Origin: a virus
Virus record (IMG/VR): IMGVR_UViG_3300015259_000005
Span: 1,244-65,243 of that record
DNA length: 64,000 bases
Strand: one strand, 5' to 3'
In this document: one piece after another, positions 10,766 through 64,000 of the stretch
Layout: every line of letters starts with the position of its first letter
Numbering within the stretch: the stretch's first letter is position 1
Program-made: the position numbers and the translations under genes
The notes under the pieces: model-generated
Databases searched by the model: none
The model's input: the letters and a program-made list of their open reading frames with translations, nothing else
Told to the model about the DNA's origin: nothing

Positions 10766-10841
10766 TGGGAGCGGGAGCGGGGCTCGAACCCGCGACACGC
10801 GGCTTATGGGGCCGCTGCTCTACCAACTGAGCTATCCCGCA
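10766..10841 (-). tRNA. tRNA with CAT anticodon (Met/fMet-like, atypical)
   Basis: TGCGGGA-TAGCTCAGTTGGTAGAGC-A-GCGGC-CCCATAA-GCCGC-GTGTC-GCGGG-TTCGAGC-CCCGC-TCCCGCT-C-CCA; U1:U72 mismatch, C33. Confidence 0.88.
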
Positions 10842-14886: not shown

Positions 14887-15507
14887 TTAGGCGTCCATCT
14901 CGATCATCTCTTCGCCGTCCGGGTCGCGCGGCAGACCGAACTCGTCGACCAGCCGGCGGGACATCGAGATGATGTACTCGTCGTTCATCGTGCTCACCAG
15001 CTTGACCGTGCTCTTGATCCGCTCGGTCGTCTTCGTCGGGCGCGTGAGCTTCACGTGCGGGTAGGGCCCGAGATCGCTCGCGATCGACATGAGCTCGTGG
15101 AGCAGGCGCGCGCCGGGCGTCGTCGCGGTCCACGGCTTCTCGAGCCCGACCGCGCGGGCCGCCTTCACGAACTCGCCCTTGTGCTTCTGATCGGTGCCGA
15201 CCGCGGCGTGGACCATCTCGTGCAGCAGCGTCGCGAGCACGGCGATTACGTCGTCGAGCTCCGGCGAGATGAACACGTGGTGGGTCTGCCCGTCGGCCGC
15301 GCAGCCGCGCGACCAGCACTCGCCGATCCGCTTGCGGCCGCCCTTCGGAAAGCCGGTGCTCACCGCGAGCGCCGTCAGCCCGAGCGGGAAGTCGGGGACG
15401 TAGCGCTCGAGCAGCACGTTCAGAGAGAGCGCCGCCTCGCGCAGCCACGCCTCGCGGGTGTGGTGAAGGAAGGGCGACGTGATCGGTGCGTCGGTTGCGT
15501 CGTTCAT
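14887..15507 (-). CDS. SprT-like zinc metallopeptidase
   Basis: TRE.WL...IGECW...FISP...LLHEMVHA...HKGEF. Confidence 0.75.
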   Translation of the reverse strand: MNDATDAPITSPFLHHTREAWLREAALSLNVLLERYVPDFPLGLTALAVSTGFPKGGRKRIGECWSRGCAADGQTHHVFISPELDDVIAVLATLLHEMVHAAVGTDQKHKGEFVKAARAVGLEKPWTATTPGARLLHELMSIASDLGPYPHVKLTRPTKTTERIKSTVKLVSTMNDEYIISMSRRLVDEFGLPRDPDGEEMIEMDA

Positions 15508-15776
15508 CGGGTGACCTCGTACTCCCAGAGGCCGCTCACCGCGGAGCGGCGCCGTTTGTTCACCGTGTAGCTCCCGAAGCGCGGCTTCCGCAAGTGGCGA
15601 AGCTGCGCGGACACCGACGCGGGCGGATCGCCGGTCGCCGCGGAGATTTCGGGCAGGCTGTGGTAGCCGGGGTGCCCGATCATGAAATCGCGGATGCGGT
15701 TCATCTGGGTGCGCACTCGGCGGCCGTCGATCTGCTCGTCGTACGCCGGCCCGAAGGTCGAGCTAGCCGCGGACAT
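15504..15776 (-). CDS. winged-HTH DNA-binding protein
   Basis: SLPEISAATGDPPASVSAQLRHLRK..FG...V.KR....GLWEY. Confidence 0.7.
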   Translation of the reverse strand: MSAASSTFGPAYDEQIDGRRVRTQMNRIRDFMIGHPGYHSLPEISAATGDPPASVSAQLRHLRKPRFGSYTVNKRRRSAVSGLWEYEVTR

Positions 15777-15948
15777 TGAGCTCGACCTCGAGCCGCTCGG
15801 CGCCCACGTTCAGGGCGGCGAAGGCGTCGTGGATGTCGGTCAGCGCGGCGTCGCGGTGCTCGTCGCGCTGCGGGCGCTGGATCACGCTGCGGGCGGACTC
15901 GAGCGCGCGACGGATCGTCCGTTCGGCCCGGTCGGTGAGGATTTGCAT
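15763..15948 (-). CDS. hypothetical protein
   Basis: 61 aa; AGGAG RBS. Confidence 0.55.
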   Translation of the reverse strand: MQILTDRAERTIRRALESARSVIQRPQRDEHRDAALTDIHDAFAALNVGAERLEVELNVRG

Positions 15949-15996
15949 GAGGGCTCCTGTGAGGGTGTGGGAGACGTATCGGCCGGCACGAACGGA

Positions 15997-16025
15997 ACTT
16001 TAGCGCTCGGCAGGGTCGGATGCCA
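15997..16025 (-). promoter_or_regulatory. sigma-70-like promoter
   Basis: TGGCAT-17-TAAAGT; CGCTAAAGTTC shared with the promoter at 28474-28501. Confidence 0.5.
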
Positions 16026-16089
16026 CAGTCGGCTAAGTAGTCGGTTCGCCTCGGGAAGTGTCTCCCAGAATCACCCGTTTTTCTGACAG

Positions 16090-16825
16090 CCTGTTAGGCA
16101 GCGGGTGCCGAGATTTGTCACTTACCGAAAAACGGGAAGTGCCCAAAAACGTAGGCCGAATTTGGCGTTACGTGGGCGCAGCGCGCCGAGTTGCGTTTTA
16201 GTTGCCTACCCCCGGTGTTAGGCGGGTGTTAGGCCGCACTAACAGCAACTAACAGGCAAGACGATTTCCCTAGTAATACCACACACTTAGCTAGCCTTAC
16301 CCACCTAACACACTAACTAACACACTCGCTAGGTACTGGCCTACGCCTAACACCCTCTACAGCTACCTAACCCCCTGTATCTAGTGACGTTTTCCGTCAC
16401 TTCACCCCTACACAGTAGCGGGAGGCTACGCGCAGCGGTATGCGCCTAGTTGCACATTGCGTCAGTGAGGGTTTCGTGAGTGATTCCGTAGGGTTAGGGG
16501 TTGTATAGGGGGGTAGCGTTAGCGGGTTTTCTAGCGCTCGCTGCGCTGCGCGCCTACATAGCCACATAGTGGCTAACGCTGCCACCCCGAGGCGGGAGGC
16601 AACATATACCCCGAAGGGTGCGCGCTAGCGGCGCTTTTCCCCTTCGCTATCCACTAGACCACTAGTAGCCACATACTCCTATAGTAGGTGTGGGGATAGG
16701 GGTACTACATACCCGCTAGCTCTACGTTTCCAGCCCTCTCTATATAGGTATATGTGGCTATAGTGTCATTCTCTGCTATATCAAGGGGTTAACGTGGCTA
16801 TCTGCTAGTGGCCTAGTAGTGGCAC
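16090..16825. repeat. non-coding repeat-rich region (origin and/or terminus or injection-stop candidate)
   Basis: About 10 TGTTAG/CTAAC(A) copies at 16092-16371; opposing TAGCCAC/CCACTAG and GTGGCTA/TAGTGGC copies at 16559-16823 around TATATAGGTATAT; perfect GTGACG-TTTTC-CGTCAC at 16384-16400. Confidence 0.65.
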
Positions 16826-17374
16826 CTCTGGCAAACCCGAGGCGGACGGTTAGCCGATCCGAGCGCGTGCGCGCGTCCGCCCATCGGGCAAAACGGCAAG
16901 CGCCCGACGCGCATACTCGGCGCGTCGGGCGCTAACCCGTTTCGGACGATCGGGCGCTAGCTCGCGCCGCACCCCCGAGCCGTACAGCGGCGCGCGGAGA
17001 GTGCAACCGCGACGCGCGCCGCATCCGAGCGGCGCGGGTATGTGTGCCCCGACGCGCTGCCGCACGTCGCGCACGCGACGCGGAACCCACCCGGCACGGG
17101 CACTACGGCGCGGGTGCCGCAAACGAAGCGGGCGGCGGCCGTCACAGCGGCTCGCCCGACGCGATCGCGGCCGACTCCCGCGCGTCCGCGTCCGCGTCGG
17201 CGCAATACTGCGCGGCGAGCGCGTGCGACCCCCGAGCGGCGCACCGATCGGCCGCCCGATAGCCGGCGGCAGCGGAGCGCGCGAGCCGATCGGCGCGAGC
17301 GTAGGCGGCCGTGCTTCGCTCCGCGGCGATTGCGAGCGGAACCCACGCGCGCGGGTTGGCGCAGCGTCCGCCGC

Positions 17375-17755
17375 TCACTTCGCGCCCTCCGACGCGATCG
17401 CGAGCCCTACACCGCAACCGCCCGCGTCGGGATGGCACACGGCTACAGTGCCGTCTGTTTCGCGCGCTGCGCGCTCCGCTGTGAAAGCGTGAACGGCGAG
17501 CGCGCCGCAAGACGGGCAGCGGACGGGCAACCCTGCGACACACTCGCGCAGCGGCGGCGCTTCGCCGCACGCGCGCGCCACGTCCGCCGAGATTGCGGCG
17601 AGCACGCGCGCCCGATTGCCGCGGTACCCCTCCCCTTTCGCGATCGCGAGCGCGGAGCGGCGGCGCGATAGCCGTAGCCCTTTCGCTTCCATCGCGAGCG
17701 CGGAGCGCAGCGCAGCGAAACGCGCGAAGCGGATAGCCTCGGGGGTGTCCAGCAT
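17375..17755 (-). CDS. hypothetical protein with C-terminal Zn ribbon
   Basis: ALAMEAKGLRLSRRRSA..; CPSC...CHPDAGGCG. Confidence 0.55.
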   Translation of the reverse strand: MLDTPEAIRFARFAALRSALAMEAKGLRLSRRRSALAIAKGEGYRGNRARVLAAISADVARACGEAPPLRECVAGLPVRCPSCGALAVHAFTAERAARETDGTVAVCHPDAGGCGVGLAIASEGAK

Positions 17756-18217
17756 GATTCCGCCGCCGCTCACTTTTCGCACCCGAAGCAACGGCAGTAC
17801 CCGTGCGGTTGCGGCCGTGCCATCGCGCGCACAGCGGCGGCAGCGTGCAAGTAGGCGTCCGCCGCGCCGCGCCGATAACCCGCGTCCTCGGGATCGCCGT
17901 TATCCGCGGCGCGGCGCATCGCTGCGCCCTCGCCGTCGATCCATTTGGCAGCGGCAAGAATTGCCGCCGCGCCCTCGCCGTCGAATTGAACGGGCACGGC
18001 TACGCCCCCACTGCGCGGCGCGGCTCGCGGATCCCGAGCGCTCGCGCCCGATCGGCCGCCGCGTCGGCGCGCGCCGCGTCCAGCAGGCGAAACGCGCGCG
18101 ACTCTTCCGCGCGCCGCATGCGGCGCGTAGCGCTGCCGATCGGGGCCAGCCCTACCAGCGCACCCGAAAGCATCGCGATACGCGCGCAGCGCTCCAGTAG
18201 TGAGATTGAGCGGCCCA

Positions 18218-18307
18218 CTACAGCGCACCTACCACGCGCGCGAGTGCCAGCGCGGAACCCGTGAGCGAAGCGGCGAACCCGAGGACGGAGACGATTCGGT
18301 CGAACAT
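18218..18307 (-). CDS. 29-aa hydrophobic peptide
   Basis: MFDRIVSVLGFAASLTGSALALARVVGAL; AAAGGA RBS; too short for the ORF track. Confidence 0.5.
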   Translation of the reverse strand: MFDRIVSVLGFAASLTGSALALARVVGAL

Positions 18308-18340
18308 GGCTAGACGTTTCCTTTCGTACTGGATCGGGGG

Positions 18341-18430
18341 TTAGAGGCCGGCAACCGTTGCGACGTTGACCAGCGCGTAGAACATGACACCCGCGAACCC
18401 GAGGACCAGCGCCGAGATTGCGTAACCCAT
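18341..18430 (-). CDS. 29-aa hydrophobic peptide
   Basis: MGYAISALVLGFAGVMFYALVNVATVAGL; AAGGGG RBS; first ORF after a sigma-54 promoter. Confidence 0.55.
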   Translation of the reverse strand: MGYAISALVLGFAGVMFYALVNVATVAGL

Positions 18431-18464
18431 TTTCGTTCCCCTTTGTTTGTTCGGACGTGACTAC

Positions 18465-18485
18465 CCTACTGCAACCCGTGTGCCA
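18465..18485 (-). promoter_or_regulatory. sigma-54 (-24/-12) promoter P3
   Basis: TGGCACACGGGTTGCAGTAGG matches TGGCAC-N5-TTGCW; paired sites at 18545-18561 and 18569-18585. Confidence 0.85.
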
Positions 18486-18552
18486 CGGGCGCGGAGCGCG
18501 GAGCGCGCGCCGTAGCCTATAGTTGCGCACTAGCGGACCTTTCGGTGACGTT

Positions 18553-18897
18553 TTACGGCGTCACCCTAGCGCCGTTTTGCGTCACTCGGCGCGAGCGCTC
18601 GCGCGCCGCCTCCCGCAAGTAGCCGGCCGCCGCAGCGTAGCGCGCAGCGTTCCCCGCGTGGATACTCGCCGCGCCGCAAAGGTCCGAGCGCAGCACGCGC
18701 AGCGCGTCGCGCGCGCTCCGCTCCGCGTGGTAGAGTGCCCACGCGGCGGCGCGTCGCAGCGCGTAGGCGGAACCCGGCACGCGCTCGCCGTCCAGCGTAG
18801 CACCCGCGAGCCGTAGCGCGTCTAGCTCGGGGCGTCCGGCGCATGCTGCCATTGCTAGCGCGTGCTCGCCGTCCGAAAGCGGAACAAAGCGCCGCAT
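18553..18897 (-). CDS. hypothetical protein
   Basis: MRRFVPLSDGEHALAMAAC..; TAATG coupling. Confidence 0.5.
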   Translation of the reverse strand: MRRFVPLSDGEHALAMAACAGRPELDALRLAGATLDGERVPGSAYALRRAAAWALYHAERSARDALRVLRSDLCGAASIHAGNAARYAAAAGYLREAARERSRRVTQNGARVTP

Positions 18898-19127
18898 TAG
18901 CTCGCGTCCTCCCGCCAATACTTCCACGGCGAGCGCTGCGCGTTCCACCGATCGAGCAACCGCAAAAACGCTAGCTCCGATGCCTCGGGGTGCGTTGCGT
19001 AGGTGAGGCGTCCGCTCGGGATATGCAACCGCGCGAAGCGATAGAGCGTTAGGCCACTGCGCGCGAGCCGCGCGCGGTACTCGTCTACCGTTTCCACGTC
19101 CGGCGCGGACGGGTGTGCGCGTGCCAT
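18897..19127 (-). CDS. hypothetical protein
   Basis: 76 aa; TAATG coupling. Confidence 0.55.
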   Translation of the reverse strand: MARAHPSAPDVETVDEYRARLARSGLTLYRFARLHIPSGRLTYATHPEASELAFLRLLDRWNAQRSPWKYWREDAS

Positions 19128-19321
19128 TAGTCGGCCCTCCCCTCTGATAGCGGCATGTCGCCGTTAGGGAAGCACGCGCGCACAAACCGAACCTCGCAAA
19201 AACGCGGGTTGAATCGGTGGCACACGTCCGCGATACCCGAGGCTACCTCTAGCCGCTCGGAGTCGGTTAGGGGCAGCGCCGCGACCATTTCGGCGAACGC
19301 CTCGAAGTGTCGGCGCGTCAT
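19127..19321 (-). CDS. conserved small phage protein
   Basis: MTRRHF...NPRF..VRF..AC pattern seen in many phage early genes. Confidence 0.6.
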   Translation of the reverse strand: MTRRHFEAFAEMVAALPLTDSERLEVASGIADVCHRFNPRFCEVRFVRACFPNGDMPLSEGRAD

Positions 19322-19590
19322 TATCGCGACCCCTCGAAATCGTCGCACGCGCGGCGGAACATATCGTAATCCGTCAACCCGTCCGCGTTATTTTCGACTA
19401 CTGCGGCCCACCCGCTATCGCCAAACTCGCAACCGTCGCCGCCGCCCATTTCGCCGCAATCCTCGGGGTCCGAGGCGTCGCCCGCTTTCGCTTTCGCGAT
19501 CGCGTCCGCCTCGGTGTCCGCCTCTACCTCGTAACGGAATTTCCGGTACTCGGTACACTCTTGCATTTCGTAGACGAAAAATCGCGCCAC
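19321..19590 (-). CDS. small acidic protein
   Basis: YEVEADTEADAIAKA motif; D/E-rich. Confidence 0.55.
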   Translation of the reverse strand: MARFFVYEMQECTEYRKFRYEVEADTEADAIAKAKAGDASDPEDCGEMGGGDGCEFGDSGWAAVVENNADGLTDYDMFRRACDDFEGSR

Positions 19591-19711
19591 TACTCTACCC
19601 CTTTCGCTAGTCCGGGGATACACACGATTACGACGATAGACGCGACTAGCAGCGCGTCCGCGCCTAGCGATACCCCCCAATAGAGTACCGCGAGCACACT
19701 TCCGACGCGGA

Positions 19712-20053
19712 CTAGAATCGGCAGAGTGTGCGATCCGTCGCGGCAGCGTCCGCGATCCACTCGCGAAACTCCGCGGATAGTCCGCGCCCCTTGCGCGCAG
19801 CGTCCGCTATCGGTGTGCCGTTTTCGTCCATCACAGTTACGGCGCTTCCGATCCCGCCCGACAAGCGATAGAAGCGCCGCCGCTCCGCGCCGTCGCCGTA
19901 GACTACATACCCGTCTAGGTAATAGGTACGCTCGCCGTCGCGCGTCGCTACTACCTTCGCCCGCAACCCGAGCGGCGAAACGTCCGCCCGCGAGCGCAGC
20001 GCGTCCATATCGGATAACGCTTGATTGAGTGCCAACCCGTACGCTTTTACCAT
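19712..20053 (-). CDS. hypothetical protein
   Basis: 113 aa ORF in operon order. Confidence 0.5.
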   Translation of the reverse strand: MVKAYGLALNQALSDMDALRSRADVSPLGLRAKVVATRDGERTYYLDGYVVYGDGAERRRFYRLSGGIGSAVTVMDENGTPIADAARKGRGLSAEFREWIADAAATDRTLCRF

Positions 20054-20056
20054 AGG

Positions 20057-21019
20057 CTACCGTTTCCACCTTTCCACTTCCTGCGGCGTTATGCCGTAGT
20101 GCAAGAGAATATCCGCGATGATTTCGGGTTCCGATTCCGCGAGCCGTAGTAGCCGGTAATAGTCGTCACCCGATCCGGCGGGAGTGCCCCACCCCGAAAC
20201 GGTTTCCCACTTCCGCGCCGCGTCACCTTTAGGCCACTGGCCCCAATCGTCGCCCCACTCGGGATCCGCTTTCGGATCGCGCGCGACGGGCAGCGCCGAA
20301 ACGTCTAGGCGCATTAGTCGCGGCAGTAGCCACAACATAAAACCTACGTCTAGCGTTTCCTTCGCGCTGTGCGCGTGCTCGTAACCTACGCTTAGGTTGC
20401 TGCACTCGGGGATAAGCTCGGCATAATTCGCCGTATCGGTGAATAGTCCCGACTCGTCCGGCTCGAAATCGCCGCCTAGCGCGTCGGCGAGCGCACCCGC
20501 GAAAGTGTCCGACGCGCAGCGCGCACCCTGATAGGTGATAACCGAGTCGAACCCCTTTCGGTCAAGCGCGATCGCGTAGCGGATCCCGTCCAATAGCTCG
20601 GGGGTTTCCTCTGCTATGTAGGTGGATCCGATCCCGCCGATTTCCTCGCCGCGGTGGAAGATATATAGCCCTTCCACTTCCGCGCGGATCATTTCGGACA
20701 TTAGCCAAACTCCCGCGCTATCGTCCGCCCCGAGGCAAGACGATTGCGAGTCGCGCGCTAGTTTGATTTTCCCCGCCTCTACCCGGACGTTTTGCCGTCC
20801 ACCTTTCCCGCTGTGTACCGTATCGGTGTGGCACGACCAAAGCACGGGCGCGGATCCGATACGCTTGATTAGGTTCCCCGCGCCGTCAATCTCGCACCCG
20901 AGCGGAGCTAGGAAGCGTTTGATAAATTCCACTTCCGCGCGCGATCCCGCCGGCCGCGAGTAGGTGAGCATATCCAGCAAGCTCCGCGGAGTCTTTAGGG
21001 TGCGTTCGGTTTTGGGCAT
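20057..21019 (-). CDS. M28/M20-clan zinc peptidase
   Basis: CHTDTV, LGADDSAG, RGEEIG..GS, IALDRKG, TDTANY, NLSVGY..AHS..E. Confidence 0.85.
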   Translation of the reverse strand: MPKTERTLKTPRSLLDMLTYSRPAGSRAEVEFIKRFLAPLGCEIDGAGNLIKRIGSAPVLWSCHTDTVHSGKGGRQNVRVEAGKIKLARDSQSSCLGADDSAGVWLMSEMIRAEVEGLYIFHRGEEIGGIGSTYIAEETPELLDGIRYAIALDRKGFDSVITYQGARCASDTFAGALADALGGDFEPDESGLFTDTANYAELIPECSNLSVGYEHAHSAKETLDVGFMLWLLPRLMRLDVSALPVARDPKADPEWGDDWGQWPKGDAARKWETVSGWGTPAGSGDDYYRLLRLAESEPEIIADILLHYGITPQEVERWKR

Positions 21020-21020
21020 G

Positions 21021-22646
21021 TTAGTTATTCTCCGATTCGGTCGGGCACGAGCACGGGCAACCGTTCACACCGTAGGCGCACGGGGCGGGATCGGGCACGC
21101 GCTCGGGGAGCGGCGCGCGCTCGCGCCCTTCCATCGCGTCGCGCGCGTCCGCCACTGCGCGGCGCGTCGCGTCGATTAGCTCCGCGCGGGTTAGTTCGTC
21201 CGCGGCTAGCGTCCAGTCTATCGGGTGCGCGCCTAGCGCGTTCGCTGCGCGCGTCGCCGCGTCGCGATCGCCGCTATGGATTCCGGCGCTTAGTCCGCTC
21301 GCCGCGTGGGTGACTACAAACCGCCGCGACTCGGAAGCGTCCGAGCGCGTCGCGCGCGTTACCACTATTCCGGGGGTTTCGGTAGCCCACGCGCGGACGT
21401 ACTCGAAACTACCGGCCGTCGGGATAGGCTGGACTAGCGAGCATCGCGCCGGCGCGTCCGCGTCGCCCGACTCCTCGCCGTCCGCGTCCGCGTTCTCTTT
21501 TTCCTCCGACTCGGCGCAATTCTCGCAGTGCCCCGACTCGTTTACTTCGCCGTTAGGCCACCACTCGCCGCACGGCTCGCAGTGGGTATAATTCGACTCG
21601 GCGCAATCGCTGCAAACCGTATCGCCGTCCATGTCGGTAATCGCGTCCTCCGACGGCACTAGCGCGTCACAGCGCGACCACGCACACCGCGCGTAGTGCG
21701 AGCTTACGCAATCGTCGCAAATGTCCATCCGCTGCGACGCGGAATAGTTGATATTGTCGCGGTGTACCGAGTTTTCGCAGTGGTCGCAGTGTCGGATAAT
21801 ATCGTCCGCGCAACCGCTACAAAGCGAGCCGTCGGCCGCCTCATAATAGGATAGTTCGTCCTCGGGGTATCGTTCGTCGCACGCGCTACAGGTTTCGTAG
21901 CTTGAACCTTCCGTCAATCCGTGGGTACACTGCGCGTTATACTCCCCGGATTCGTCGATTACTAGCCAATCGCCGTTATCCGAAACGGCGCTAACGTAGT
22001 CAATATACGGGCACACGTACTCGTAACCGTGTGCGATTTTTCGGATCCGCGCGCCCTCTATCGAACCTTCCGAGTAGCCGGCCGCGTGAAGCGCAGCGAT
22101 TAGGCGGGTTTCGTCGCCGTAGACGCGCGTATGTACTAGGTTGCTAGGCCACACAATCGCGCGCGCCGTTACTTCGCCGTCGCGGCGGATATAGGCTAGC
22201 TTCAAATCTGGGCCAGCGTAGACGCGCACGGGATGGCACGGCGACTCGTACGAGCTAGCGCTATGCGACATGCAAGAATTAGGGCCGCTAGTGTAAATCT
22301 CTTCCCACTCGTCCGCGGTTTCGGCTAGCAATAGCTCGGGGGATTCGTTCTCCGCGGCGAAACGTCCGGCCCACTCGCGCACAGCGTCGGGATCCAGCGC
22401 CGACACGAAACGCGCGAGATAGCGTCCGGGTTTCATAGCCGTTTGACGATCGCGCGCCCCTTTGTCCGCGTTCTCGGTAAACGCAATCTGTGCGCCGTGC
22501 TTGACCGATGCGTGCGCGAAGTGGTCGGCGAGCGGCGCACCTTCCGCGGTTAGCGCCGTCCACCACTCTTCCGCGTGCCACGGTACGGGTTTGTACTCGC
22601 CGCACGCAAACCGCGCGCGTTCGCGCTCGCGCCAATCGTCCGACAT
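21021..22646 (-). CDS. large protein with tandem Cys-x2-Cys repeats
   Basis: 541 aa; MKPGRYL..., SCMS, ARAIVW, RVYG, CPYID N-terminal domain, then about 8 CxxC units and an acidic linker. Confidence 0.7.
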   Translation of the reverse strand: MSDDWRERERARFACGEYKPVPWHAEEWWTALTAEGAPLADHFAHASVKHGAQIAFTENADKGARDRQTAMKPGRYLARFVSALDPDAVREWAGRFAAENESPELLLAETADEWEEIYTSGPNSCMSHSASSYESPCHPVRVYAGPDLKLAYIRRDGEVTARAIVWPSNLVHTRVYGDETRLIAALHAAGYSEGSIEGARIRKIAHGYEYVCPYIDYVSAVSDNGDWLVIDESGEYNAQCTHGLTEGSSYETCSACDERYPEDELSYYEAADGSLCSGCADDIIRHCDHCENSVHRDNINYSASQRMDICDDCVSSHYARCAWSRCDALVPSEDAITDMDGDTVCSDCAESNYTHCEPCGEWWPNGEVNESGHCENCAESEEKENADADGEESGDADAPARCSLVQPIPTAGSFEYVRAWATETPGIVVTRATRSDASESRRFVVTHAASGLSAGIHSGDRDAATRAANALGAHPIDWTLAADELTRAELIDATRRAVADARDAMEGRERAPLPERVPDPAPCAYGVNGCPCSCPTESENN

Positions 22647-22649
22647 GCC

Positions 22650-22874
22650 CTAGCCCTCCCCGCGCGTTCGGCGGTTGAATCGGAAACCCGGACGATTCTC
22701 GGGGCGAGCGCGCAGCGCGCGCCGCTCCGCGGCTCGCACGTCACGCGCGCGGATCCGCGCCGAGATTGCGTCTAGCCGCGCACACTGCGCGGGCGTAAGC
22801 TCCGCGGCAGCGGCGGCTATCGCCGCGTCTAGCCGCGCGTTCTCTTCGGGCGTTAGCCCCTTGCCGTTCGTCAT
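22650..22874 (-). CDS. hypothetical protein with internal LTP..xARLDA duplication
   Basis: LTPEENARLDA / LTPAQCARLDA; GGAGG RBS. Confidence 0.55.
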   Translation of the reverse strand: MTNGKGLTPEENARLDAAIAAAAAELTPAQCARLDAISARIRARDVRAAERRALRARPENRPGFRFNRRTRGEG

Positions 22875-22881
22875 AGCCTCC

Positions 22882-22902
22882 CCTACTGCAACCCGTGTGC
22901 CA
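22882..22902 (-). promoter_or_regulatory. sigma-54 promoter P2
   Basis: Same 21-mer as P1 and P3; paired sites at 22942-22958 and 22964-22980. Confidence 0.85.
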
Positions 22903-22954
22903 GCGCTGCCGCGCGCGCTCCGCGCGCCGCGCCCCTTTCGGGTGCCGTTAGTCG

Positions 22955-23191
22955 TCACTTCCGCCCGCAAATTGCGGCACCTTCCGCGCGCTGCGCCGCT
23001 ACCATCGCGGCGCGCGAGCCGAACCCGCGCCAATCGCGCCCGACGGCGCGGCGGCGCTTCCCTTCGCGCGACTCGGCGCGCGACTCCGCGCGGCACAGCG
23101 CGCACACCCGGCGCAGCGCGACGCAATCACACTCTACGGCGACGCGCTCCGCGTCGCGCAAGCTCCGAGGCGCGTATACGAGCTTAGCCAC
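22955..23191 (-). CDS. small Cys-containing protein
   Basis: ECDC...VCALC; GGGAGG RBS. Confidence 0.45.
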   Translation of the reverse strand: MAKLVYAPRSLRDAERVAVECDCVALRRVCALCRAESRAESREGKRRRAVGRDWRGFGSRAAMVAAQRAEGAAICGRK

Positions 23192-23193
23192 GG

Positions 23194-23379
23194 CTAGCGC
23201 CCTCCCGCGTTCGGGCGCGCGTACTGTAGCGGCGCTTTCACTTCCGACGCGCTCTCCGCGTCCGGGTTGAGGCGCAGCGCTTCCATTAGCGCCGCGATGA
23301 TATTCGGCGCTTCCACTTCCACGGTTGCGTAGGGAAGGTCCGCCAGCGCCGTCCGGTAGAGCTTGATTGCGTGCTTCAC
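23194..23379 (-). CDS. hypothetical protein, first gene of the island
   Basis: VKHAIKLY..VEVEAPNIIAAL..; AAAGGGG RBS downstream of P1. Confidence 0.55.
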   Translation of the reverse strand: MKHAIKLYRTALADLPYATVEVEAPNIIAALMEALRLNPDAESASEVKAPLQYARPNAGGR

Positions 23380-23409
23380 TTTGGGAACCCCTTTCGGTGT
23401 GTGCCGGAT

Positions 23410-23430
23410 CCTACTGCAACCCGTGTGCCA
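23410..23430 (-). promoter_or_regulatory. sigma-54 promoter P1
   Basis: TGGCACACGGGTTGCAGTAGG; perfect GTGACG-CGCGC-CGTCAC at 23480-23496 and a partial site at 23503-23519. Confidence 0.85.
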
Positions 23431-24294
23431 GCGCTGCGGCGCGCGCTCCGCTCGCCGTAGCCCTCTGCGACACTTGAAAGTGACGCGCGCCGTCACTTCG
23501 CGCCCGCAAATTGCGTCACCCGCAACGGCTCGCGAAATGTTCTACCAGAATAGAACGCGCGAGGCAAGAAAATTCTATTCTGATAGAAATTCGCGCCGAG
23601 GCGGACGTTTCGCGCGCGGCGCGAATTGCCAGCGCACGCGCACGCAACTAGCGCCGCAGCGGAATTTTCGCGCCGCAGCGGAGTTGCCGGCGCGTGCGCA
23701 CGCAACTAGCACCCGTGGGGGTTGCCGGCTCATGCGGCGGCAACTAGCGCGCAACTCGGCGCAGGAGCTCCCCCTTACACCCTTATCACCCAAAATTTTC
23801 GCTACACGCATATCACCCAAATGCGGGCGAGGCGTGCGAGGCGCGGCTAGCGGCGACGAGCTCGTCGTAGCGCACGCTGGCGCTTCGCTCGAGCTCGTCG
23901 CTTCGCTGCGCTGCCAGAGCTCGGCGAGCGCGGCGACATTGTCGACCGCGGTGCAGCGCCGACCGTCGGCGGATCGCCAGACGGCTTTTCGATCATCGAA
24001 TCAACGCGGCAAAGCCAGCGCTGAAACTCAGTGATCGGTTCGATCGCGGAGCCGAACGTCTCGGTCGAGTGCCTTGCTGAAATCGGCGGCGAACTCCCGG
24101 ACGAATTCGAGGTTCACGATCACTGTGTTGACGACGATGCTGGCCTGCGGCGAAACAGCGAGGGCAAGCGATCGCAGAAGTTGTCGGTTCTCTTCGATCG
24201 CAGCGGCCAGGACTGCTGCCTTGGCTGCGTGATCTTTCCGGTTGTGGTTGCCATGGATCCTCCCAGCGCGCCAGCGCGCCCATCAAATGGAGTT

Positions 24295-24350
24295 TGAAAT
24301 TGGAAAATGAAATGCCCCGTCGCCCAATTTTAGGTTAGGCGACGGGGCGG
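24295..24350 (-). terminator. intrinsic terminator of the 28.4->24.35 kb operon
   Basis: GCCCCGTCGCC/GGCGACGGGGC stem followed on the minus strand by ATTTCATTTTCC. Confidence 0.7.
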
Positions 24351-24352
24351 GG

Positions 24353-24595
24353 TCAGTAGCCGGCCGCGATCACGTCCCGACCGCGTTCGGTCGGGGCGAA
24401 GAACGTGACGGGCGTAGCCTTGCAGCCCACGTTCAGTCGGCGCGCGGCGATCAGGTTGCGCTTGCGCAGCGCGGTGATCGTCGAGGCCCGGAACGTGGCC
24501 TGAGCGTCTTCCTTGCGGAAGCCACGGCGGCCCTGGCCGGTCGACGCCGCGGCGATCTGCCACAGCGCGACCCGCATTGCATCGGTCAATCGCAT
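24353..24595 (-). CDS. small basic winged-helix-like protein
   Basis: MRLTDAM...STITALRKRNLI...TERGR. Confidence 0.5.
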   Translation of the reverse strand: MRLTDAMRVALWQIAAASTGQGRRGFRKEDAQATFRASTITALRKRNLIAARRLNVGCKATPVTFFAPTERGRDVIAAGY

Positions 24596-24642
24596 ACTCG
24601 TTCTCCCTGTGCTATTCGCCGTTCATCGAACGGGAATCCGTT

Positions 24643-25046
24643 TTACGATTTTCGGAGCCGGCGTCCCTGCTCGAAGAGCGCGTAGCTCTCGCGGCGTAGC
24701 GTGTTCTGCGCGATCAGCAGATCGAGGCAGCGCGTCATGAGGCGCACGTACTTCGGCGGGTACGGATTGTCCGTACACTTGTCGAGGTAGCAGCGCAGAT
24801 CGTTCGTGATTGCGTGCGCCTGCTCGCGCGCCGCATGCAGCTTCTCGCGATATCGCTTCTGGCTGCGATCGAACCGCTCGCGCTGCTCGCACTCGTAGCG
24901 CTTCTCGAGCTCGGCGCGACGACGCACGATCTCGGCGTCACGCAGCACGGGCGCCACGGATGCCAGGGTTGCCTCGACGGCGGCGAGCCGCACGCAGAGG
25001 TCGTTGACGGTCACTCGCTTCGCTTTCTTCGTCTTTCGCTTTGCCA
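24643..25046 (-). CDS. coiled-coil hypothetical protein
   Basis: GGAGG RBS; MAKRKTKKAK.. Confidence 0.5.
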
Positions 25047-27556: not shown

Positions 27557-27772
27557 TTAGTCGCCTCCCTGTAGTACGATCAGTCGGCTGTCGGCGTACC
27601 CCGCCGGCACCTTCGTGACCGTGCCGCCGCGGCGCAGATACTCGGCGAGCGTCTCGCGTCGCGTCGGCCTGTGCGTCCGCGGCTTCGGCAGCCGCGCCTC
27701 GAAGTTGGGGTTCAGATCGCCCTCGAGTGCTGCGCGGGCGAGATAGAGCTTGTCGAGGTTGCGCGGGATCAC
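27557..27772 (-). CDS. SutA-like RNA polymerase-binding peptide
   Basis: LAEYLRRGGTVTKVPAG resembles the SutA EFL..GG.V motif. Confidence 0.5.
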   Translation of the reverse strand: MIPRNLDKLYLARAALEGDLNPNFEARLPKPRTHRPTRRETLAEYLRRGGTVTKVPAGYADSRLIVLQGGD

Positions 27773-28419
27773 TGCTGGATCCCACGGTGCAGGAAGGGCC
27801 CGACGGCGCGGTCGCCGCCGTAGCTCTTCGCGCGGTAGCACTCGCGGTCGGCACGCGCGATCAGCGCCGGGGCCGTCTCTCCCACCTCGTGCGCGGCGCC
27901 GCCGATCGACACCGTGACGGGTGACGTGGTGCGGACGGCCTCTGCGATGCGGTCGCCGAGCGCGAGCAGCCCGAGCGGGCTTGTCTCGTCCACGATCACC
28001 ACGAACTCGTCGCCGCCGTAGCGGACCAGCACGTCGGGCGCGCGGAGGCAGGAGTGGATGGCGCGCGCCACCGCAGCCAGGGCCGTGTCCCCCGCGGGGT
28101 GGCCGTCCAGATCGTTGAGCGGCTTCAGCCCGTCCACGTCGATGAACAGGACGCCGGCAGCCTTGGGAGCTAGCGTGGGAGCGCCGCTGTTGCGCCGTAC
28201 GGAGCGCGCGAGGGCCAGCCCGAGCAGATCGTCCAGCCGGCCGCGCCCGAAGGCGCCAGTGAGCGGGCAGCGCGACAGGCGCGCCACCTCGGTCTGGGCG
28301 GTGGCGAGCGCTGACTCCAGGGAGCGGACGCGGCCCTCGAGCTCGCGGGTGTAGGCCGGGCTGTTGCGCTCGCCCTGCCGGTCGTATAGGCTCTGCTCGA
28401 ACATGATCGCCTCGGCCAT
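27769..28419 (-). CDS. diguanylate cyclase (GGDEF)
   Basis: N-terminal coiled coil, PLTG, DVDGLKPLND..GH..GD..L, RxxD I-site (RAPD), RYGGDEF, TVSIG, RAD..Y.AK..G. Confidence 0.93.
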   Translation of the reverse strand: MAEAIMFEQSLYDRQGERNSPAYTRELEGRVRSLESALATAQTEVARLSRCPLTGAFGRGRLDDLLGLALARSVRRNSGAPTLAPKAAGVLFIDVDGLKPLNDLDGHPAGDTALAAVARAIHSCLRAPDVLVRYGGDEFVVIVDETSPLGLLALGDRIAEAVRTTSPVTVSIGGAAHEVGETAPALIARADRECYRAKSYGGDRAVGPFLHRGIQQ

Positions 28420-28473: not shown

Positions 28474-28501
28474 ACTTTAGCGGCGATCTTTCGTGGTGCC
28501 A
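28474..28501 (-). promoter_or_regulatory. sigma-70-like promoter for the GGDEF operon
   Basis: TGGCAC-16-TAAAGT; CGCTAAAGTTC shared with 15997-16025. Confidence 0.5.
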
Positions 28502-28552
28502 GCCGACACAGTGGCCGGCGGCACCGATGTCCGTCTCACGTGGAGGTTTCCG

Positions 28553-30199
28553 TTGACTCTCGACATCTGGTTCTCGAAGCATCCCGAAGCCGCCGAAGCG
28601 GTGCGCCTCTGGCTCGTTGCGCGGCAGCGCGGCAAGACGACCGAAGGCAGCCGCACCATCGTAGGCCGCCTCCGCAAAGAGCACAAGCTCCCGTTCGCGG
28701 ATCACACCGCGTTTCAGCGCTGGGCCCGCCGCCGCTATCCCGATCTCTACGCCACCGGCGTCGCCACGTCCTCGCGGCCGGCGTCGGCCGACAAGATCGC
28801 CTCCAGCTTCAAGCGCTCCACGCGCGACGTGAAGGCCCTCGAGCGCAGCGAGGATTTCTTCGTCACCTGCGCCGTGCAGGAGAGCTACGCGAACCGCGAC
28901 TTCCTCGCCGCCATCCAGAAGTGGTGCGGCGAGCGCGACGGCAAGCTGGTGATCAACCCCGTGCTCTACACCAATCCGCGTACCCGCTCCGAGACGGAGC
29001 GCGCGCGGGGTGAGCGCTGGTGGGATCCGGCGTTGGCCGACTTCATGCTCGAGAACGAGCTCCGACCGCACGAGAAGCTGTCGATCATGACGACGAAGGC
29101 GCAGGCCACCGCGCACAACCCGCTGCCCGCGCGGCTGTCGGGGCGCACGAAGGACCGCAGCGCGGTGTTCGGCCACCCGCAGTTGTCGATGCGCACCGTC
29201 GCCACGCCACAGTCGAAGCTCCCGAAAATCCTGTACTCGTCGGGCGCGATCACCGAGAAGAACTACAGCGAGACGCTGGCCGGCGACATGGCGGACTTCC
29301 ACCACTCGCTCGGCGGCGTGATCGTGGAGGTGCGCGGCAACCGCTTCTACCTCCGCGAAGTGACGTGGGACGGCGAGGGTTTCACGGACCTCGACCGGCG
29401 CTACACCGCGCAGGGTGGTGAGGCCGCCCCGCCGCCCGAGGCGCTGGTGATGGGCGACATACACGCGCCCCACTTCGTGTCGCCGACGGTGATGAACGCC
29501 ACATTCGGTCAGGGTGGGATTCACGAAACGCTTCGCCCCCGTCGCCTTTTCCTGCACGACCTCGCGGATAACCGCAACGTCAACCACCACGAGCTCGCGA
29601 ATCGGCTGACGCGCGCGGCGCTCGTGGGCAAGGGCGAGGGGTCGATCGCGCAGGAGCTCGCGGGCGTGGCGCAGTGGTTGCTGAACCTCCCCGAGTTCGA
29701 GGAGGTGCTAGTCGTCCGCTCCAACCACGACGACTTCCTCGGGCAGTGGCTCGAGCGCGCACACCCGGAGCCGCAGAACGCGAAGCTGTTCCACCAACTG
29801 AGCTACCTGATGCTCGAGCACTTCGAGGGGCACGGCTCGTTCCCGATCCCGCTCGAGCTCGCGCTCCGGCAGAATCACCTGCTACCCGACAACATCCGCT
29901 TCCTGAACACGGACGAGCCGTGCCAGATCGGCGGCGTCGAACTCGGGATGCACGGGCACCGCGGACCCGACGGCGCGCGCGGCTCGCTGCGCAACCTGTC
30001 GATGATCGGCACGCGGTCGATGGTCGGACACGGCCACGGGCCCGGCATCTGGCAGGGCGGCTACATGGTCGGCATGTCCTCGGTGTACCGGCACGGCTAC
30101 AACAACGGGCCGAGCTCGTGGCTGCAATCGCATGGGCTGGTCCACGCCAACGGCTATCGGCAGTTGGTCCACATGATCAAGGACACGTGGCGAGGTTAG
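28553..30199 (+). CDS. T5 A1-like protein with metallophosphoesterase domain
   Basis: FVTCA...TA.NPL...GHP...G.IT..NY...AG..A.FHH..G..VE; GDIH, HD, SNHD, HGH.GP.G.RG, GH.H.P.I, GYN.GPSSW; TTG start after GGAGG. Confidence 0.7.
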   Translation: MTLDIWFSKHPEAAEAVRLWLVARQRGKTTEGSRTIVGRLRKEHKLPFADHTAFQRWARRRYPDLYATGVATSSRPASADKIASSFKRSTRDVKALERSEDFFVTCAVQESYANRDFLAAIQKWCGERDGKLVINPVLYTNPRTRSETERARGERWWDPALADFMLENELRPHEKLSIMTTKAQATAHNPLPARLSGRTKDRSAVFGHPQLSMRTVATPQSKLPKILYSSGAITEKNYSETLAGDMADFHHSLGGVIVEVRGNRFYLREVTWDGEGFTDLDRRYTAQGGEAAPPPEALVMGDIHAPHFVSPTVMNATFGQGGIHETLRPRRLFLHDLADNRNVNHHELANRLTRAALVGKGEGSIAQELAGVAQWLLNLPEFEEVLVVRSNHDDFLGQWLERAHPEPQNAKLFHQLSYLMLEHFEGHGSFPIPLELALRQNHLLPDNIRFLNTDEPCQIGGVELGMHGHRGPDGARGSLRNLSMIGTRSMVGHGHGPGIWQGGYMVGMSSVYRHGYNNGPSSWLQSHGLVHANGYRQLVHMIKDTWRG

Positions 30200-33400: not shown

Positions 33401-33826
33401 ATGACCGAGTACGTCTGCGGCTTCGCGTTCAACCGCGACCGCACCGAGGTCGCGCTGATCGAGAAGGCGAAGCCCGAGTGGCAGCGCGGCCAGTGGAACG
33501 GCATCGGCGGCAAGATCGAGCCGGGCGAGTACCCGAGCGAGGCCATGGCGCGGGAGTTCGAGGAGGAGACGGGCTGGAGCGTGCCGGCATCGCGCTGGTA
33601 TCCGTTCGCGGTCCTCTTCGGCAAAGGCTACCGCGTGACGTTCTACGTCGCGCTCGACGTGCGGATCGCACACTGCGTCACCGCGACCGACGAGCGCGTG
33701 CAGTGCTGGGCGGTCGACGCACTGCCCGACAAGGTGATCCCCAATCTCAAGTGGCTGATCCCGCTCGCGCTGCAAGCGGACCAGTACCAGCGGCTCACGA
33801 TCCGCACGACGGACTTCAGCGAATGA
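33401..33826 (+). CDS. NUDIX hydrolase
   Basis: GGKIEPGEYPSEAMAREFEEETG Nudix box. Confidence 0.93.
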   Translation: MTEYVCGFAFNRDRTEVALIEKAKPEWQRGQWNGIGGKIEPGEYPSEAMAREFEEETGWSVPASRWYPFAVLFGKGYRVTFYVALDVRIAHCVTATDERVQCWAVDALPDKVIPNLKWLIPLALQADQYQRLTIRTTDFSE

Positions 33827-36912: not shown

Positions 36913-37331
36913 CCGACATCGACTCCTCCAGCGATTTCACTCGGGCGCTGACGCCCGAGCGGCTCGACGCCGACAAACGCAAGGCGCAGAGCGCCGGCCT
37001 GACCGTCGTCGAGCCGGACGATTTTACCCTGCTGATCGACCTCGACGGCCCGGAGGGCTACGCGCAATTCGAGCGAGTGTTCCCGCGCGCCGCCGAGCTC
37101 TTCGGTCTGACCATCTCGGATCGCTGGCCGTCGAAGAGCGGCGAGCTATATCACGAGCACGTGGTCGTGTCGGTCACGGATCACGGGCCGCTCGACGTGA
37201 CGACGCGGGTCGCCCTTCAGTCGATCCTCGGCTCGGACCCGGTGCGGGAGTTGCTCGCGCTGAAGCGGTTCGAGAACGGGGTCGCGGAGCCGTCAACGCT
37301 GTTCAAGCCGACGGTAGTGGAGCAGTCATGA
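36909..37331 (+). CDS. conserved hypothetical protein
   Basis: LLIDLD, SKSG..H.H, LQ..LGSDP.RE. Confidence 0.6.
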   Translation: MTDIDSSSDFTRALTPERLDADKRKAQSAGLTVVEPDDFTLLIDLDGPEGYAQFERVFPRAAELFGLTISDRWPSKSGELYHEHVVVSVTDHGPLDVTTRVALQSILGSDPVRELLALKRFENGVAEPSTLFKPTVVEQS

Positions 37332-37867
37332 AGACGGTCTACCTCGCGGGCCCGATATCGGGCGTCTCGTACAACGGCTGCACGGAGTGGCGGGAAGGCG
37401 TGCGCCGCGCGTTCGCTCCCGGCATCCTCGGGCTGTCGCCGATGCGCGCAAAGGACTATCTCGCCGAGCTCGGCACGATCCCCGACGCGGCGAACTCCGA
37501 CTATCAGGTGGAGCACCCGATGGTGAAGGTGTTGTCGAGCTCGCGTGGCATCATGTCGCGCGACTACTATGACTGCACGCATGCGGACATGGTGCTCGCG
37601 AACCTGCTGGGCGCCACGTCCGTGTCGATCGGTACGGTGATGGAGATGGCGTGGTGCTTCGGGCACCGCGTGCCGCTCGTCGTCGCGATCGAGCCGGAGA
37701 ACAATCTGCACGAGCACCCCATGGTGCGGGAGGCGATCAGCTTCCGCGTGCCGACGCTGGAGCAGGCCGTTCACGTCGTGAACGCCGTGCTTGGCGACTA
37801 CGTGAACGACCCGAACGGCCTCGCGCGCGTGCGCCGGCTGCTCGAGCTCGAGCCGGTGATCGACTGA
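37328..37867 (+). CDS. nucleoside 2-deoxyribosyltransferase-like protein
   Basis: VYLAGPI, D.....D, SIGT.ME.A. Confidence 0.8.
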   Translation: MKTVYLAGPISGVSYNGCTEWREGVRRAFAPGILGLSPMRAKDYLAELGTIPDAANSDYQVEHPMVKVLSSSRGIMSRDYYDCTHADMVLANLLGATSVSIGTVMEMAWCFGHRVPLVVAIEPENNLHEHPMVREAISFRVPTLEQAVHVVNAVLGDYVNDPNGLARVRRLLELEPVID

Positions 37868-43714: not shown

Positions 43715-44296
43715 ATGTTCATCGTGGGTGTGTGCGCCGTCGCTGGCGGCGGCAAGACGACGTTCTCGGAACGGCTCCGGGACATGCACGGGTTCTCGTT
43801 CGCGAGCTTCGCGTCCCCGCTGAAGGACGACTGCGCCGAGCGGTACGGTTTCGACCGCGGGGCCCTGGACTTCGACGAGGCGGCGCGTGCGCTCGGGTAC
43901 GAGAGCTCGTTCGCGTACAAGGAAGAGTACGTGCCCGATCTCGACATGACGCGCCGGCAGGCGTTGATCCTGCGCGCAACCGAGGCGCGGGCGGCGGACC
44001 CGGACATCTACGTCAACCTGCTGATCCGCAAGCTCGAGGCGGGCGGCAAGTACGTGATCGGCGACGTGCGGTTCCGCAACGAAGTGGCCGCGATGCGCAC
44101 GGCAGGTGGCGTGCTGGTGCGGCTGTACCGGCCGTCGCGCGAGGACGTGGTGACTTCGGCGGGCGCGCACGAATCGGAGACGGAGTGGAAGACGATCGAG
44201 CCGGACTTCGCGTTCACGCCCGGCGAGGGCATCCCGCTCGTTCAGCAGGCGGCCGACGACTTCGTGGCGACGCTGCGCGCGACGGGGCGGATCTGA
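43715..44296 (+). CDS. deoxynucleoside monophosphate kinase
   Basis: GGGKT, SFA.PLK, R..L, DVRFRNE, HESE. Confidence 0.85.
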   Translation: MFIVGVCAVAGGGKTTFSERLRDMHGFSFASFASPLKDDCAERYGFDRGALDFDEAARALGYESSFAYKEEYVPDLDMTRRQALILRATEARAADPDIYVNLLIRKLEAGGKYVIGDVRFRNEVAAMRTAGGVLVRLYRPSREDVVTSAGAHESETEWKTIEPDFAFTPGEGIPLVQQAADDFVATLRATGRI

Positions 44297-63328: not shown

Positions 63329-63332
63329 GTTG

Positions 63333-63818: not shown

Positions 63819-63840
63819 GTACCTCAGTGATTCGGGGTTG

Positions 63841-63881
63841 AAAGAGAAGGCGCCCCGCCGCCGCTGAGACGACGGGGCGCC
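63841..63881 (-). terminator. intrinsic terminator after the capsid gene
   Basis: GGCGCCCCG/CGGGGCGCC stem followed by TTCTCTTT on the minus strand. Confidence 0.75.
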
Positions 63882-63914
63882 CGAATCCCACTCAACGTGG
63901 GAGGGGAGAACGGA

Positions 63915-64000
63915 TTAGCCGTTCGTGCGGAGCTCGGCGATCTTGATCTGCTTCCGCTCGGGATACCGACGATCCGCGACCGAGTGGCCCAGATGGCGGT
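63915..64000 (-). CDS. major capsid protein, C-terminal end
   Basis: ..DRRYPERKQIKIAELRTNG* typical of this capsid family; implies a circular permutation. Confidence 0.75.
   Translation of the reverse strand, partial: RHLGHSVADRRYPERKQIKIAELRTNG

Follow-up and report, generated by a model that had tools for sequence, protein, structure and literature searches.

A compositional island with a reversed dinucleotide signature and sigma-54-type promoter-like elements in the genome of a YuA-like siphovirus

The virus record IMGVR_UViG_3300015259_000005 is a single 65,243-bp metagenome contig, classed as linear and about 100% complete, of which bases 1244–65243 form the 64,000-nt window analysed here. 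Positions are those of the window unless stated otherwise. The backbone is that of a GC-rich (~0.67) siphovirus carrying genes for terminase, portal, tape measure and tail proteins, together with a Prim-Pol/VapE primase, a DUF2800 nuclease, a family-A DNA polymerase, a helicase, an ATP-dependent ligase and a GGDEF protein. Synteny with Pseudomonas phage YuA is seen in the tail module (30–45% identity), and the gene order from GGDEF through small genes to terS/terL/portal also agrees with YuA. One intergenic gap of this backbone is filled by a block of about 7.9 kb (15960–23845) that has a GC content like that of the backbone but a foreign dinucleotide and codon signature.

The same phage DNA is present in several freshwater-sediment runs, and five of the eight runs listed contain at least half of the sampled words from 15001–25000. 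In run X1, the likely source, a single contig covers 11001–28023. The right junction of the island is crossed, with 0 mismatches, by contigs from three other samples, and a contig of one further sample is 99.89% identical over 17290–21961. A junction skipping exactly the island was not seen in the contigs of four runs, where island parts that lack a listed contig do not amount to absence. The two ends of the contig (genome positions 17–874 and 64390–65218, the latter being window 63147–63975) form an 860-bp direct repeat of 68% identity, encoding paralogous acidic coiled-coil proteins and a similar downstream open reading frame (ORF). As the ends lie within the structural operon and the repeat is just 68% identical, the assembly probably broke there at paralogues, and the true termini are probably not at these positions.

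About 18 small genes lie in the island, and all of the credible ones read leftward with overlapping stops and starts. From the right edge, a structured untranslated end (23520–23845) is followed by a promoter-like element, P3 (23416–23430, on the minus strand, as are the other elements and genes of this series), and two small ORFs of 78 and 61 aa (22955–23379). A second element, P2 (22888–22902), precedes a 74-aa ORF (22650–22874), a 541-aa protein (21021–22646), a 320-aa zinc-peptidase-like protein (20057–21019) and five tightly packed small genes (114, 76, 64, 89 and 113 aa; 18553–20053) with stop/start overlaps. Directly downstream of the third element, P1 (18471–18485), are ORFs for two hydrophobic peptides of 29 aa (18341–18430 and 18218–18307). 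These are followed by a stretch of GC 0.74 (16957–18173) whose small ORFs (among them 57, 75 and 126 aa) are doubtful as genes and have no family match, by a hairpin with 23-bp arms after the last island ORF (16890–16942), which is a possible terminator without a T run, and by an untranslated region of 890 bp (15960–16850).

The two untranslated ends are rich in repeats. The right end contains an AT-rich inverted repeat and three 33-nt direct repeats containing GCAACTAG, and is strongly structured (fold z −3.4 and −4.7). The left end has a GC content of 0.553, a TA odds ratio of 1.78, no TCGA and 13.5 CTAG per kb, and carries opposed copies of GTGTTAGGC/GCCTAACAC and copies of TAGCCAC/GTGGCTA. 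It also holds seven DnaA-box-like 9-mers, each with two mismatches and none with one or fewer, compared with about one per kb elsewhere. The block is enclosed by a 24-nt inverted repeat whose arms are 88% complementary, with 13 nt exact, its left arm at 16183–16206 (plus strand) and its right arm at 23739–23762, some 225 and 85 bp inside the island edges.

The edges, located on a 200-bp profile, are at about 15,960 and 23,830–23,847. The right edge is sharp and coincides with the stop codon of the upstream backbone ORF (TAG at 23847), while the left edge falls shortly before the start codon (ATG, 15,948) of the following backbone gene. A first-pass annotation of this DNA, made from its letters, had given the island as 16200–23830 with a sharp right boundary near 23.83 kb; the right boundary is reproduced, but the left one lies about 240 bp further left. 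Just upstream of the island, an intrinsic terminator with a 14-bp stem (24314–24348, minus strand) ends a leftward backbone operon. The segment between the terminator and the island (23847–24254, minus strand) has backbone composition and consists of one 136-codon frame broken by two stops into ORFs of 44 and 49 aa. In run X4, one contig differs there by a 1-base deletion and a 1-base insertion, at 24237/24244. The insertion site may hold a gene that is decaying or frameshifted.

P1, P2 and P3 share an identical 22-nt core that contains TGGCAC-N5-TTGC, the exact sigma-54 −24/−12 consensus. Only three exact matches to this motif occur in the 64-kb window; each lies in the island, precedes an ORF and is on the same strand as the genes. 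Palindromes centred about 50–71 nt before the −24 GG accompany all three copies, where the dyad-symmetric activator sites of sigma-54 promoters lie some 70–150 bp upstream: GGTGACG..CGTCACC 60–100 nt upstream of P1, CGCAA-T-TTGCG upstream of P2, and both GTGACG-N6-CGTCAC and CGCAA-T-TTGCG upstream of P3. Judged by their motifs, the three elements are arranged as in a textbook sigma-54 promoter, with candidate activator sites. An mRNA driven by P2 would be nearly leaderless, because the ATG of the 74-aa ORF lies 14 nt past the TTGC. Sigma-54-type promoters need RpoN and an activated AAA+ enhancer-binding protein, and no match to PF00158 was found in the phage. A simple scan detected no sigma-70-like site in the island, nor at the divergent region near 28.45 kb, and no early promoter hub is claimed. 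The annotation had described small early-type ORFs with their own promoters; promoter-like elements are indeed present, but they are of sigma-54 type only and so require an activator.

A precedent for such promoters exists in YuA, to which the present backbone is similar. YuA is stated to depend on sigma-70 and sigma-54 (PMC10914365), and this statement was the only one found in a search of the literature, supplements excepted, for sigma-54 promoters in phages. In the YuA record, three '−24/−12' promoters are annotated as active, with measured activity, all in the late region. The annotated YuA fragments contain no close match to TGGCAC-N5-TTGC (at best 8 of the 11 scored positions), whereas the island has three perfect ones. 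A search of IMG/VR for relatives of the promoter core returned two exact 19-mer matches, roughly as many as chance would give; both are in AT-rich contigs of unrelated phages, which were rejected as relatives. In one of them (L060, GC 0.335) the 19-nt core lies at 270–288, intergenic and promoter-like, upstream of a gene; this may be chance, or consensus sigma-54 promoters may be used by other phages.

The two largest genes are the best conserved. The peptidase matches phrog_4191 over residues 11–259 (E 7.1e-74) and reaches 21.2 bits against Pfam M28, just below the 21.3 cut-off. Its upstream partner, the 541-aa protein, matches phrog_6980 (E 9e-16). The nearest protein relatives of the peptidase show 62–64% identity. 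The same pair is found, adjacent and in the same order, in early regions of Autographiviridae. In Rhizobium phage Pasto it corresponds to genes 004 and 005, which follow an ArdA-like gene 2–4.5 kb from the left end, with 33% identity for the 541-aa protein and 42% for the peptidase. The pair is also present in Bradyrhizobium phage BDU-MI-1; in Klebsiella phages both genes match at nearby coordinates, and in Pectobacterium phages the peptidase was matched. Across viral loci compared by tblastx, only the pair is clearly homologous, other matches being short and scattered.

The predicted structure of the 541-aa protein has a mean predicted local distance difference test score (pLDDT) of 79, with the N-terminal 380 residues confident. 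Residues 103–195 of the model align to many GNAT acyltransferases (Z 4.3–5.7 with VIA-align, a tool whose noise is at 7–8), giving a hint of a possible GNAT-like fold, and a Cys-rich beta-hairpin region follows. A Foldseek search of the model against the PDB returned nothing at E ≤0.001. Among the 15 island ORFs examined, those other than the pair have no Pfam, PHROG or PADLOC match; a PADLOC defence scan of 10 island proteins gave no match, and Rfam no known RNA at E ≤0.1. Of the conserved columns of their families, the two large proteins keep the consensus residue in 149 of 177 and in 113 of 144, and the replacements at conserved columns go to Ala, Pro and Ser codons, with one His-to-Tyr change among 59. 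It follows that the island genes are functional and have not passed through a burst of TA-creating mutation.

The island is distinct from the backbone far beyond chance. The dinucleotide distance delta* between the two is 217 overall, and 215–253 in each of the twelve 2-kb island windows, while the highest value among 107 backbone windows is 122. On Karlin's scale a delta* of about 200 is the distance between unrelated phyla. GC content is 0.654 inside and 0.669 outside, so the block is GC-rich, as first described. The main departure is in TA, with an odds ratio of 1.46 in the island against 0.45 in the backbone, and with 1.04–1.78 in all six island sub-blocks against 0.39–0.48 in both flanks. 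CA/TG (0.68 vs 0.90) and GA/TC (0.96 vs 1.37) are lowered. Runs of at least three A/T occur at 37 per kb in the island and 11–12 per kb in the backbone at equal A+T content.

The tetramers singled out by the first-pass annotation as scarce are at 0.05–0.40 of their outside density when 16200–23830 is compared with the rest of the window: GGTC 0.18, GACC 0.30, TCAG 0.05, CTGA 0.13, CATC 0.40, GATG 0.14, CAGG 0.18 and CCTG 0.12. TCGA occurs 14 times (1.83 per kb) against 641 times outside (11.37 per kb), and the estimate of about two TCGA in 20101–21000 agrees with the exact count of 2. CTAG is found 48 times inside and 37 times outside (9.6-fold per kb), and TAG and TAA are 4.7-fold and 10.2-fold enriched while TGA is at 0.41-fold.

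Codon usage was compared between 10 island genes (1520 codons) and 17 backbone genes (8972 codons), and the counts bear out the proposed switch to CTA, GTA, ATA and ATT codons, abundant CTAG and TAG, and TAG/TAA stops. CTA makes up 42.6% of Leu codons in the island and 2.9% in the backbone, GTA 32.5% and 2.7% of Val codons, and ATA 13.5% and 0.7% of Ile codons, so that each of the three is at 12–19 times its backbone share; ATT rises from 6.4% to 19.2%. A-ending codons in which the A follows C (GCA, ACA, CCA, TCA) show no increase. The island genes end in 4 TAG, 5 TAA and 1 TGA, and the backbone genes in 6 TAG, 3 TAA and 8 TGA. TA is favoured alike within codons (positions 2–3, 1.89 vs 0.36) and across codon junctions (positions 3–1, 1.98 vs 0.29), and T|C, C|A and T|G junctions are avoided in the island. 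The phage has a CAT-anticodon tRNA at 10766–10841 (minus strand) which, if it is a lysidine-type tRNA-Ile, would read ATA.

If codon usage alone produced the scarcity of words, then shuffling synonymous codons should reproduce it. In 2000 shuffles that kept the amino-acid sequence and the island codon usage, observed counts were well below expectation for GATG (5 vs 25.0), GACC (7 vs 21.9), CCTG (1 vs 12.5), CTGA (0 vs 9.8), CATC (5 vs 14.6), GGTC (5 vs 15.0) and GGCC (15 vs 26.5), with z values from −3.2 to −6.3. TCGA was also short (11 vs 17.6, P 0.0175), while CAGG was marginal (2 vs 5.5, P 0.03) and TCAG not significant (2 vs 3.6). The first-pass annotation had named a lack of significant depletion after codon and GC correction as the point on which its reading would fall; the depletion persists after this correction for most words, with TCAG and CAGG as exceptions. 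Since three of the four word pairs are clearly depleted in both orientations, the constraint acts on duplex DNA and not on mRNA or tRNA use.

Several possible causes of the signature were considered. A restricted vocabulary was rejected, as k-mer richness and entropy in the island are about those of backbone windows, and so was selection for secondary structure (fold z −0.50 in the island vs −0.69 in the flanks, P 0.51), apart from the two untranslated ends. With regard to DNA modification, no N6/N4 or C5 methyltransferase and no thymidylate-synthase-like gene were found in the phage. In the latter respect the phage contrasts with YuA, and since such a gene was not found there is no evidence for thymidine hypermodification of the YuA/M6 type. 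None of the hypotheses examined explains a TA odds ratio of 1.46 in a block of 65% GC.

Restriction sites were examined with Markov models. The backbone avoids ACGCGT (2 sites vs 24–27 expected) and GACGTC (1 vs 29–45), and lacks GTGCAC, TCCGGA, TTCGAA, ACCGGT and ATCGAT altogether (0 vs 9–22 expected each). Avoidance of these seven palindromes forms a restriction footprint that could help to identify the host. Other sites are avoided in the island only: GGCGCC (0 vs ~10 expected; backbone 69 vs 67–85), GGGAC/GTCCC (1 vs 14–16; backbone 80 vs 100–106) and TCGA (14 vs ~35; backbone 641). Nuclease sites lost from one segment yet tolerated elsewhere are the pattern of T5-type phages, and their island-only avoidance is the best support for the idea in the first-pass annotation of a segment purged of restriction-modification targets. 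A general purge is not seen, because palindrome density is raised: four-base palindromes reach 114.9 per kb in the island and six-base palindromes 30.7 per kb, more than in any of 42 backbone windows (87.6–111.5 and 20.3–29.2), and CGCG, GCGC, CTAG and GCTAGC are enriched. CTCGAG, GAGCTC and GTCGAC occur 0, 1 and 0 times in the island against 112, 131 and 48 times in the backbone, which is mostly due to the codon switch, with 0.4–4 sites expected under island composition. A literature search on restriction-site or palindrome avoidance in phage early regions, supplements not included, found nothing.

On balance, the block is best read as a horizontally acquired, self-contained accessory cassette with a separate history, comparable to an outsized 'moron', and this reading is held with moderate confidence. 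Its insertion would fall exactly between two genes of a YuA-like siphovirus backbone. The slot would be the accessory region that separates the GGDEF and early genes from the packaging genes and that in YuA itself holds an anti-restriction gene (in the YuA record, an 'anti-restriction protein' gene follows the GGDEF gene and precedes terS/terL). The cassette would have brought about 18 small genes and its own signals, namely the three sigma-54-type promoters, palindromes that may serve as activator sites, and the closing hairpin. Its job is likely host takeover or counter-defence, because the best-conserved pair sits in the leading early region of T7-like phages. The signature is found at synonymous sites and codon junctions of genes under purifying selection, which points to a long-standing regime and not a burst of mutation.

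The concept of morons and of accessory (hyperplastic) regions in tailed-phage genomes is reportedly that of Hendrix, Juhala and colleagues. Like a moron, the island sits between two genes of a backbone operon with a composition unlike theirs, comes with promoter-like elements and a closing hairpin of its own, and occupies the slot of the YuA anti-restriction gene. Unlike a typical moron it is far larger (7.9 kb, ~18 genes), and its GC equals that of the backbone while its dinucleotide signature is reversed and its donor was not found. In all 23 high-GC relatives examined, the TA odds ratio of the pair exceeds that of the surrounding locus (0.75 vs 0.60), so the cassette is generally less adapted to the host genome, as would fit one that travels; the present island is the extreme case of this TA excess (1.34 vs 0.45).

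Several observations weigh against this reading. A blastn search with 16001–24000 against 50,697 phage records gave no match. The donor search by TA odds ratio covered 51 viral and 80 metagenome peptidase loci, six ligase loci, Pasto and YuA, leaving out the DNA of the nearest protein relatives, and the signature is in none of these loci except one that is the same phage in a second sample; among the peptidase loci and Pasto, only that one has a TA odds ratio above 1.21 in any 2-kb window at GC ≥0.55. Amino-acid usage in the island leans more to the GC-rich side than in the backbone (Ala 15.1 vs 10.4%, Arg 10.1 vs 7.5%), the reverse of what an AT-rich donor would give, which argues against such a donor undergoing amelioration. 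The bracketing inverted repeats are not at the very edges, and neither an integrase nor a transposase-like Pfam match was found. Nor do the two edges share a direct repeat of at least 10 nt, and a mobile element was rejected. For the backbone no close relative turned up (ligase relatives reach 42% identity at most, and the 339-aa neighbour has none), and the searches with the ligase and this neighbour yielded no island-less relative showing an empty site.

A further point is drawn from restriction sites. The palindromes avoided by the backbone are also missing from the island, with ACGCGT at 0 vs 5.6–8.2 expected and GACGTC, GTGCAC, TCCGGA, TTCGAA, ACCGGT and ATCGAT all at 0, and both parts have therefore been shaped by the same host nucleases. 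The island is hence not a fresh arrival; shared avoidance implies long residence under the same host pressures with the signature unfaded, and suggests that the signature is actively maintained rather than merely foreign.

A less likely alternative is a leading, first-entering (pre-early) segment without duplication. DNA would enter from a physical end at about 23,845, P3 and P2 would fire inward, 15,960–16,850 would be a pause or stop signal, and the block would be kept free of host nuclease sites that the rest tolerates once island products act. The island-only avoidance of GGCGCC, GGGAC and TCGA, which holds after Markov and codon correction, favours it. The layout also resembles that of the first-step-transfer region of T5, for which bioRxiv 10.1101/866236 describes inward edge promoters, small orphan genes and a repeat-rich untranslated region with DnaA-box-like words; the island likewise has inward-reading promoter-like elements near one edge and, in a block of comparable size (8–10 kb), small orphan genes, then an untranslated region dense in direct and inverted repeats with DnaA-box-like words at its far end. 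Restriction of T5-like phages acts only through sites in the first-entering DNA (PMC10644984), and the same holds for some Autographiviridae, whose leading region contains anti-defence genes (PMC12455610). Homologues of the two large genes occupy such a T7-like leading region, and with the contig ends being probable assembly breaks the true termini may lie elsewhere. Phage RcMcDreamy shares only the replication module with this phage and is uninformative on termini.

A full-length homologue of the T5 pre-early protein A1 ('DNA transfer protein') is encoded at 28493–30199 (plus strand; phrog_1745 E 3e-112; 28% identity over 82–93% of its length), matching A1 in the left terminal repeat of T5-like phages at E ~1e-40. 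Its presence in the genome is in line with a first-entering segment, but it lies 4.6 kb outside the island on the opposite strand. A1 homologues are also common in phages without known two-step entry. The gene heads a rightward replication operon and is divergent from the GGDEF gene (27769–28419, minus strand).

Other results also speak against a first-entering segment. Palindromes are denser than in every backbone window, with no loss of k-mer diversity, and in three other samples contigs cross the right edge at ordinary depth. Sigma-54-type promoters need an activator, for which no gene was found in the phage, no sigma-70-like early promoter was found in the block, and the annotated −24/−12 promoters of YuA sit in its late region. 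Neither dmp nor A2 was recognised, in contrast to T5. The comparison with Pasto (genes 003–005: ArdA, an unknown protein and a zinc peptidase) extends to the homologous adjacent pair; the present phage is, however, a siphovirus in which no T7-type phage RNA polymerase was found, the Pasto copy has ordinary composition (TA 0.65), and the other island genes have no counterpart there.

A bolder version of this account appears quite doubtful. The block would be a first-entering cassette written in a deliberately non-host DNA dialect, rich in TA and with A/T gathered in short tracts while GC stays the same, free of a set of nuclease targets and fired by host sigma-54 polymerase on entry, so that staged delivery like that of T5 would have evolved independently and without a terminal repeat; the regime would be kept by selection on the duplex, either for nuclease evasion or through the mechanics of DNA that is packaged last and ejected first.

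Very doubtful is a context-specific mutational regime confined to the segment, in which C-to-T changes at CpA (TpG to TpA) and TpC were filtered by purifying selection, so that the signature would reflect neither adaptation nor a donor. Almost all of the enriched tetramers can be derived from depleted ones by turning CA or TG into TA (CCAG to CTAG, CAGG to TAGG, CATC to TATC, CTGA to CTAA, and similarly GCCA to GCTA and GTCA to GTTA), the fall in CA/TG accompanies the rise in TA, and TA is equally strong at codon positions 2–3 and 3–1. Yet replacements do not go to the Tyr, Ile, Leu and Val codons expected from CA-to-TA changes, there are no premature stops, and the synonymous change TTG to TTA is absent (TTA 1 vs TTG 16). 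CTC and GTC also fell, which requires transversions, overall GC is not lowered, and no deaminase or methyltransferase was found.

A long terminal repeat of T5 type that was collapsed by the assembly, as the first-pass annotation had proposed beside a leading segment, is highly improbable. Its length and gene style resemble the terminal repeats of T5 and BF23, about 10 kb according to PMC10644984, and a collapsed repeat would appear internal in a contig. Depth was assessed from contigs (4–6x) rather than raw reads: for runs X2, X3 and X4, mean contig word depth over the island bins amounts to about 1.0, 0.73 and 0.9 times that over the flank bins, a weak test at this coverage, and separate island contigs have depths of 3.5–6.4 against 3.7–7.2 for flank contigs, so that no sign of duplication is seen. 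A1, again, is not inside the block. That earlier proposal as a whole is partly supported, by the coherent island, the depleted words, the early-region homologues of the gene pair and the presence of A1. It is not supported by palindrome density, by depth (weakly measured, not doubled), by the position of A1 outside the block or by the promoter-like elements, which are of sigma-54 type only. An assembly chimera or contaminant, which an extreme composition jump in a metagenome-assembled virus contig might suggest, is likewise highly improbable in view of the recurrence of the DNA in five of eight sediment runs, the mismatch-free bridging of the right junction in three other runs, and the agreement of gene strand, spacing and ACGCGT-type avoidance with the backbone.

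When a block of a phage genome has atypical composition, it is usually the GC content that differs, and the block is taken for a recent import. In the present island the dinucleotide code is reversed at unchanged GC, with a TA odds ratio unmatched at GC ≥0.55 among the loci examined. As the block has the restriction-site avoidance of the backbone in common with it, its signature appears to be maintained and not passively inherited. If selection on first-entering DNA maintains it, then T5-style staged entry and leading-region site avoidance would extend to a new group of phages, and the signature would be a sequence-only marker for such regions in metagenomes. If a mutational regime does, an unknown context-specific process would act on part of a phage genome. 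Either way, three textbook sigma-54-type promoters and a widely conserved, uncharacterised early pair (a possibly GNAT-like, Cys-rich protein and a putative zinc peptidase) are available for experiments.

The replication module of the backbone also includes NUDIX, weakly nucleoside 2-deoxyribosyltransferase-like and P-loop kinase-like genes (33401–33826, 37328–37867 and 43715–44296, respectively, all on the plus strand).

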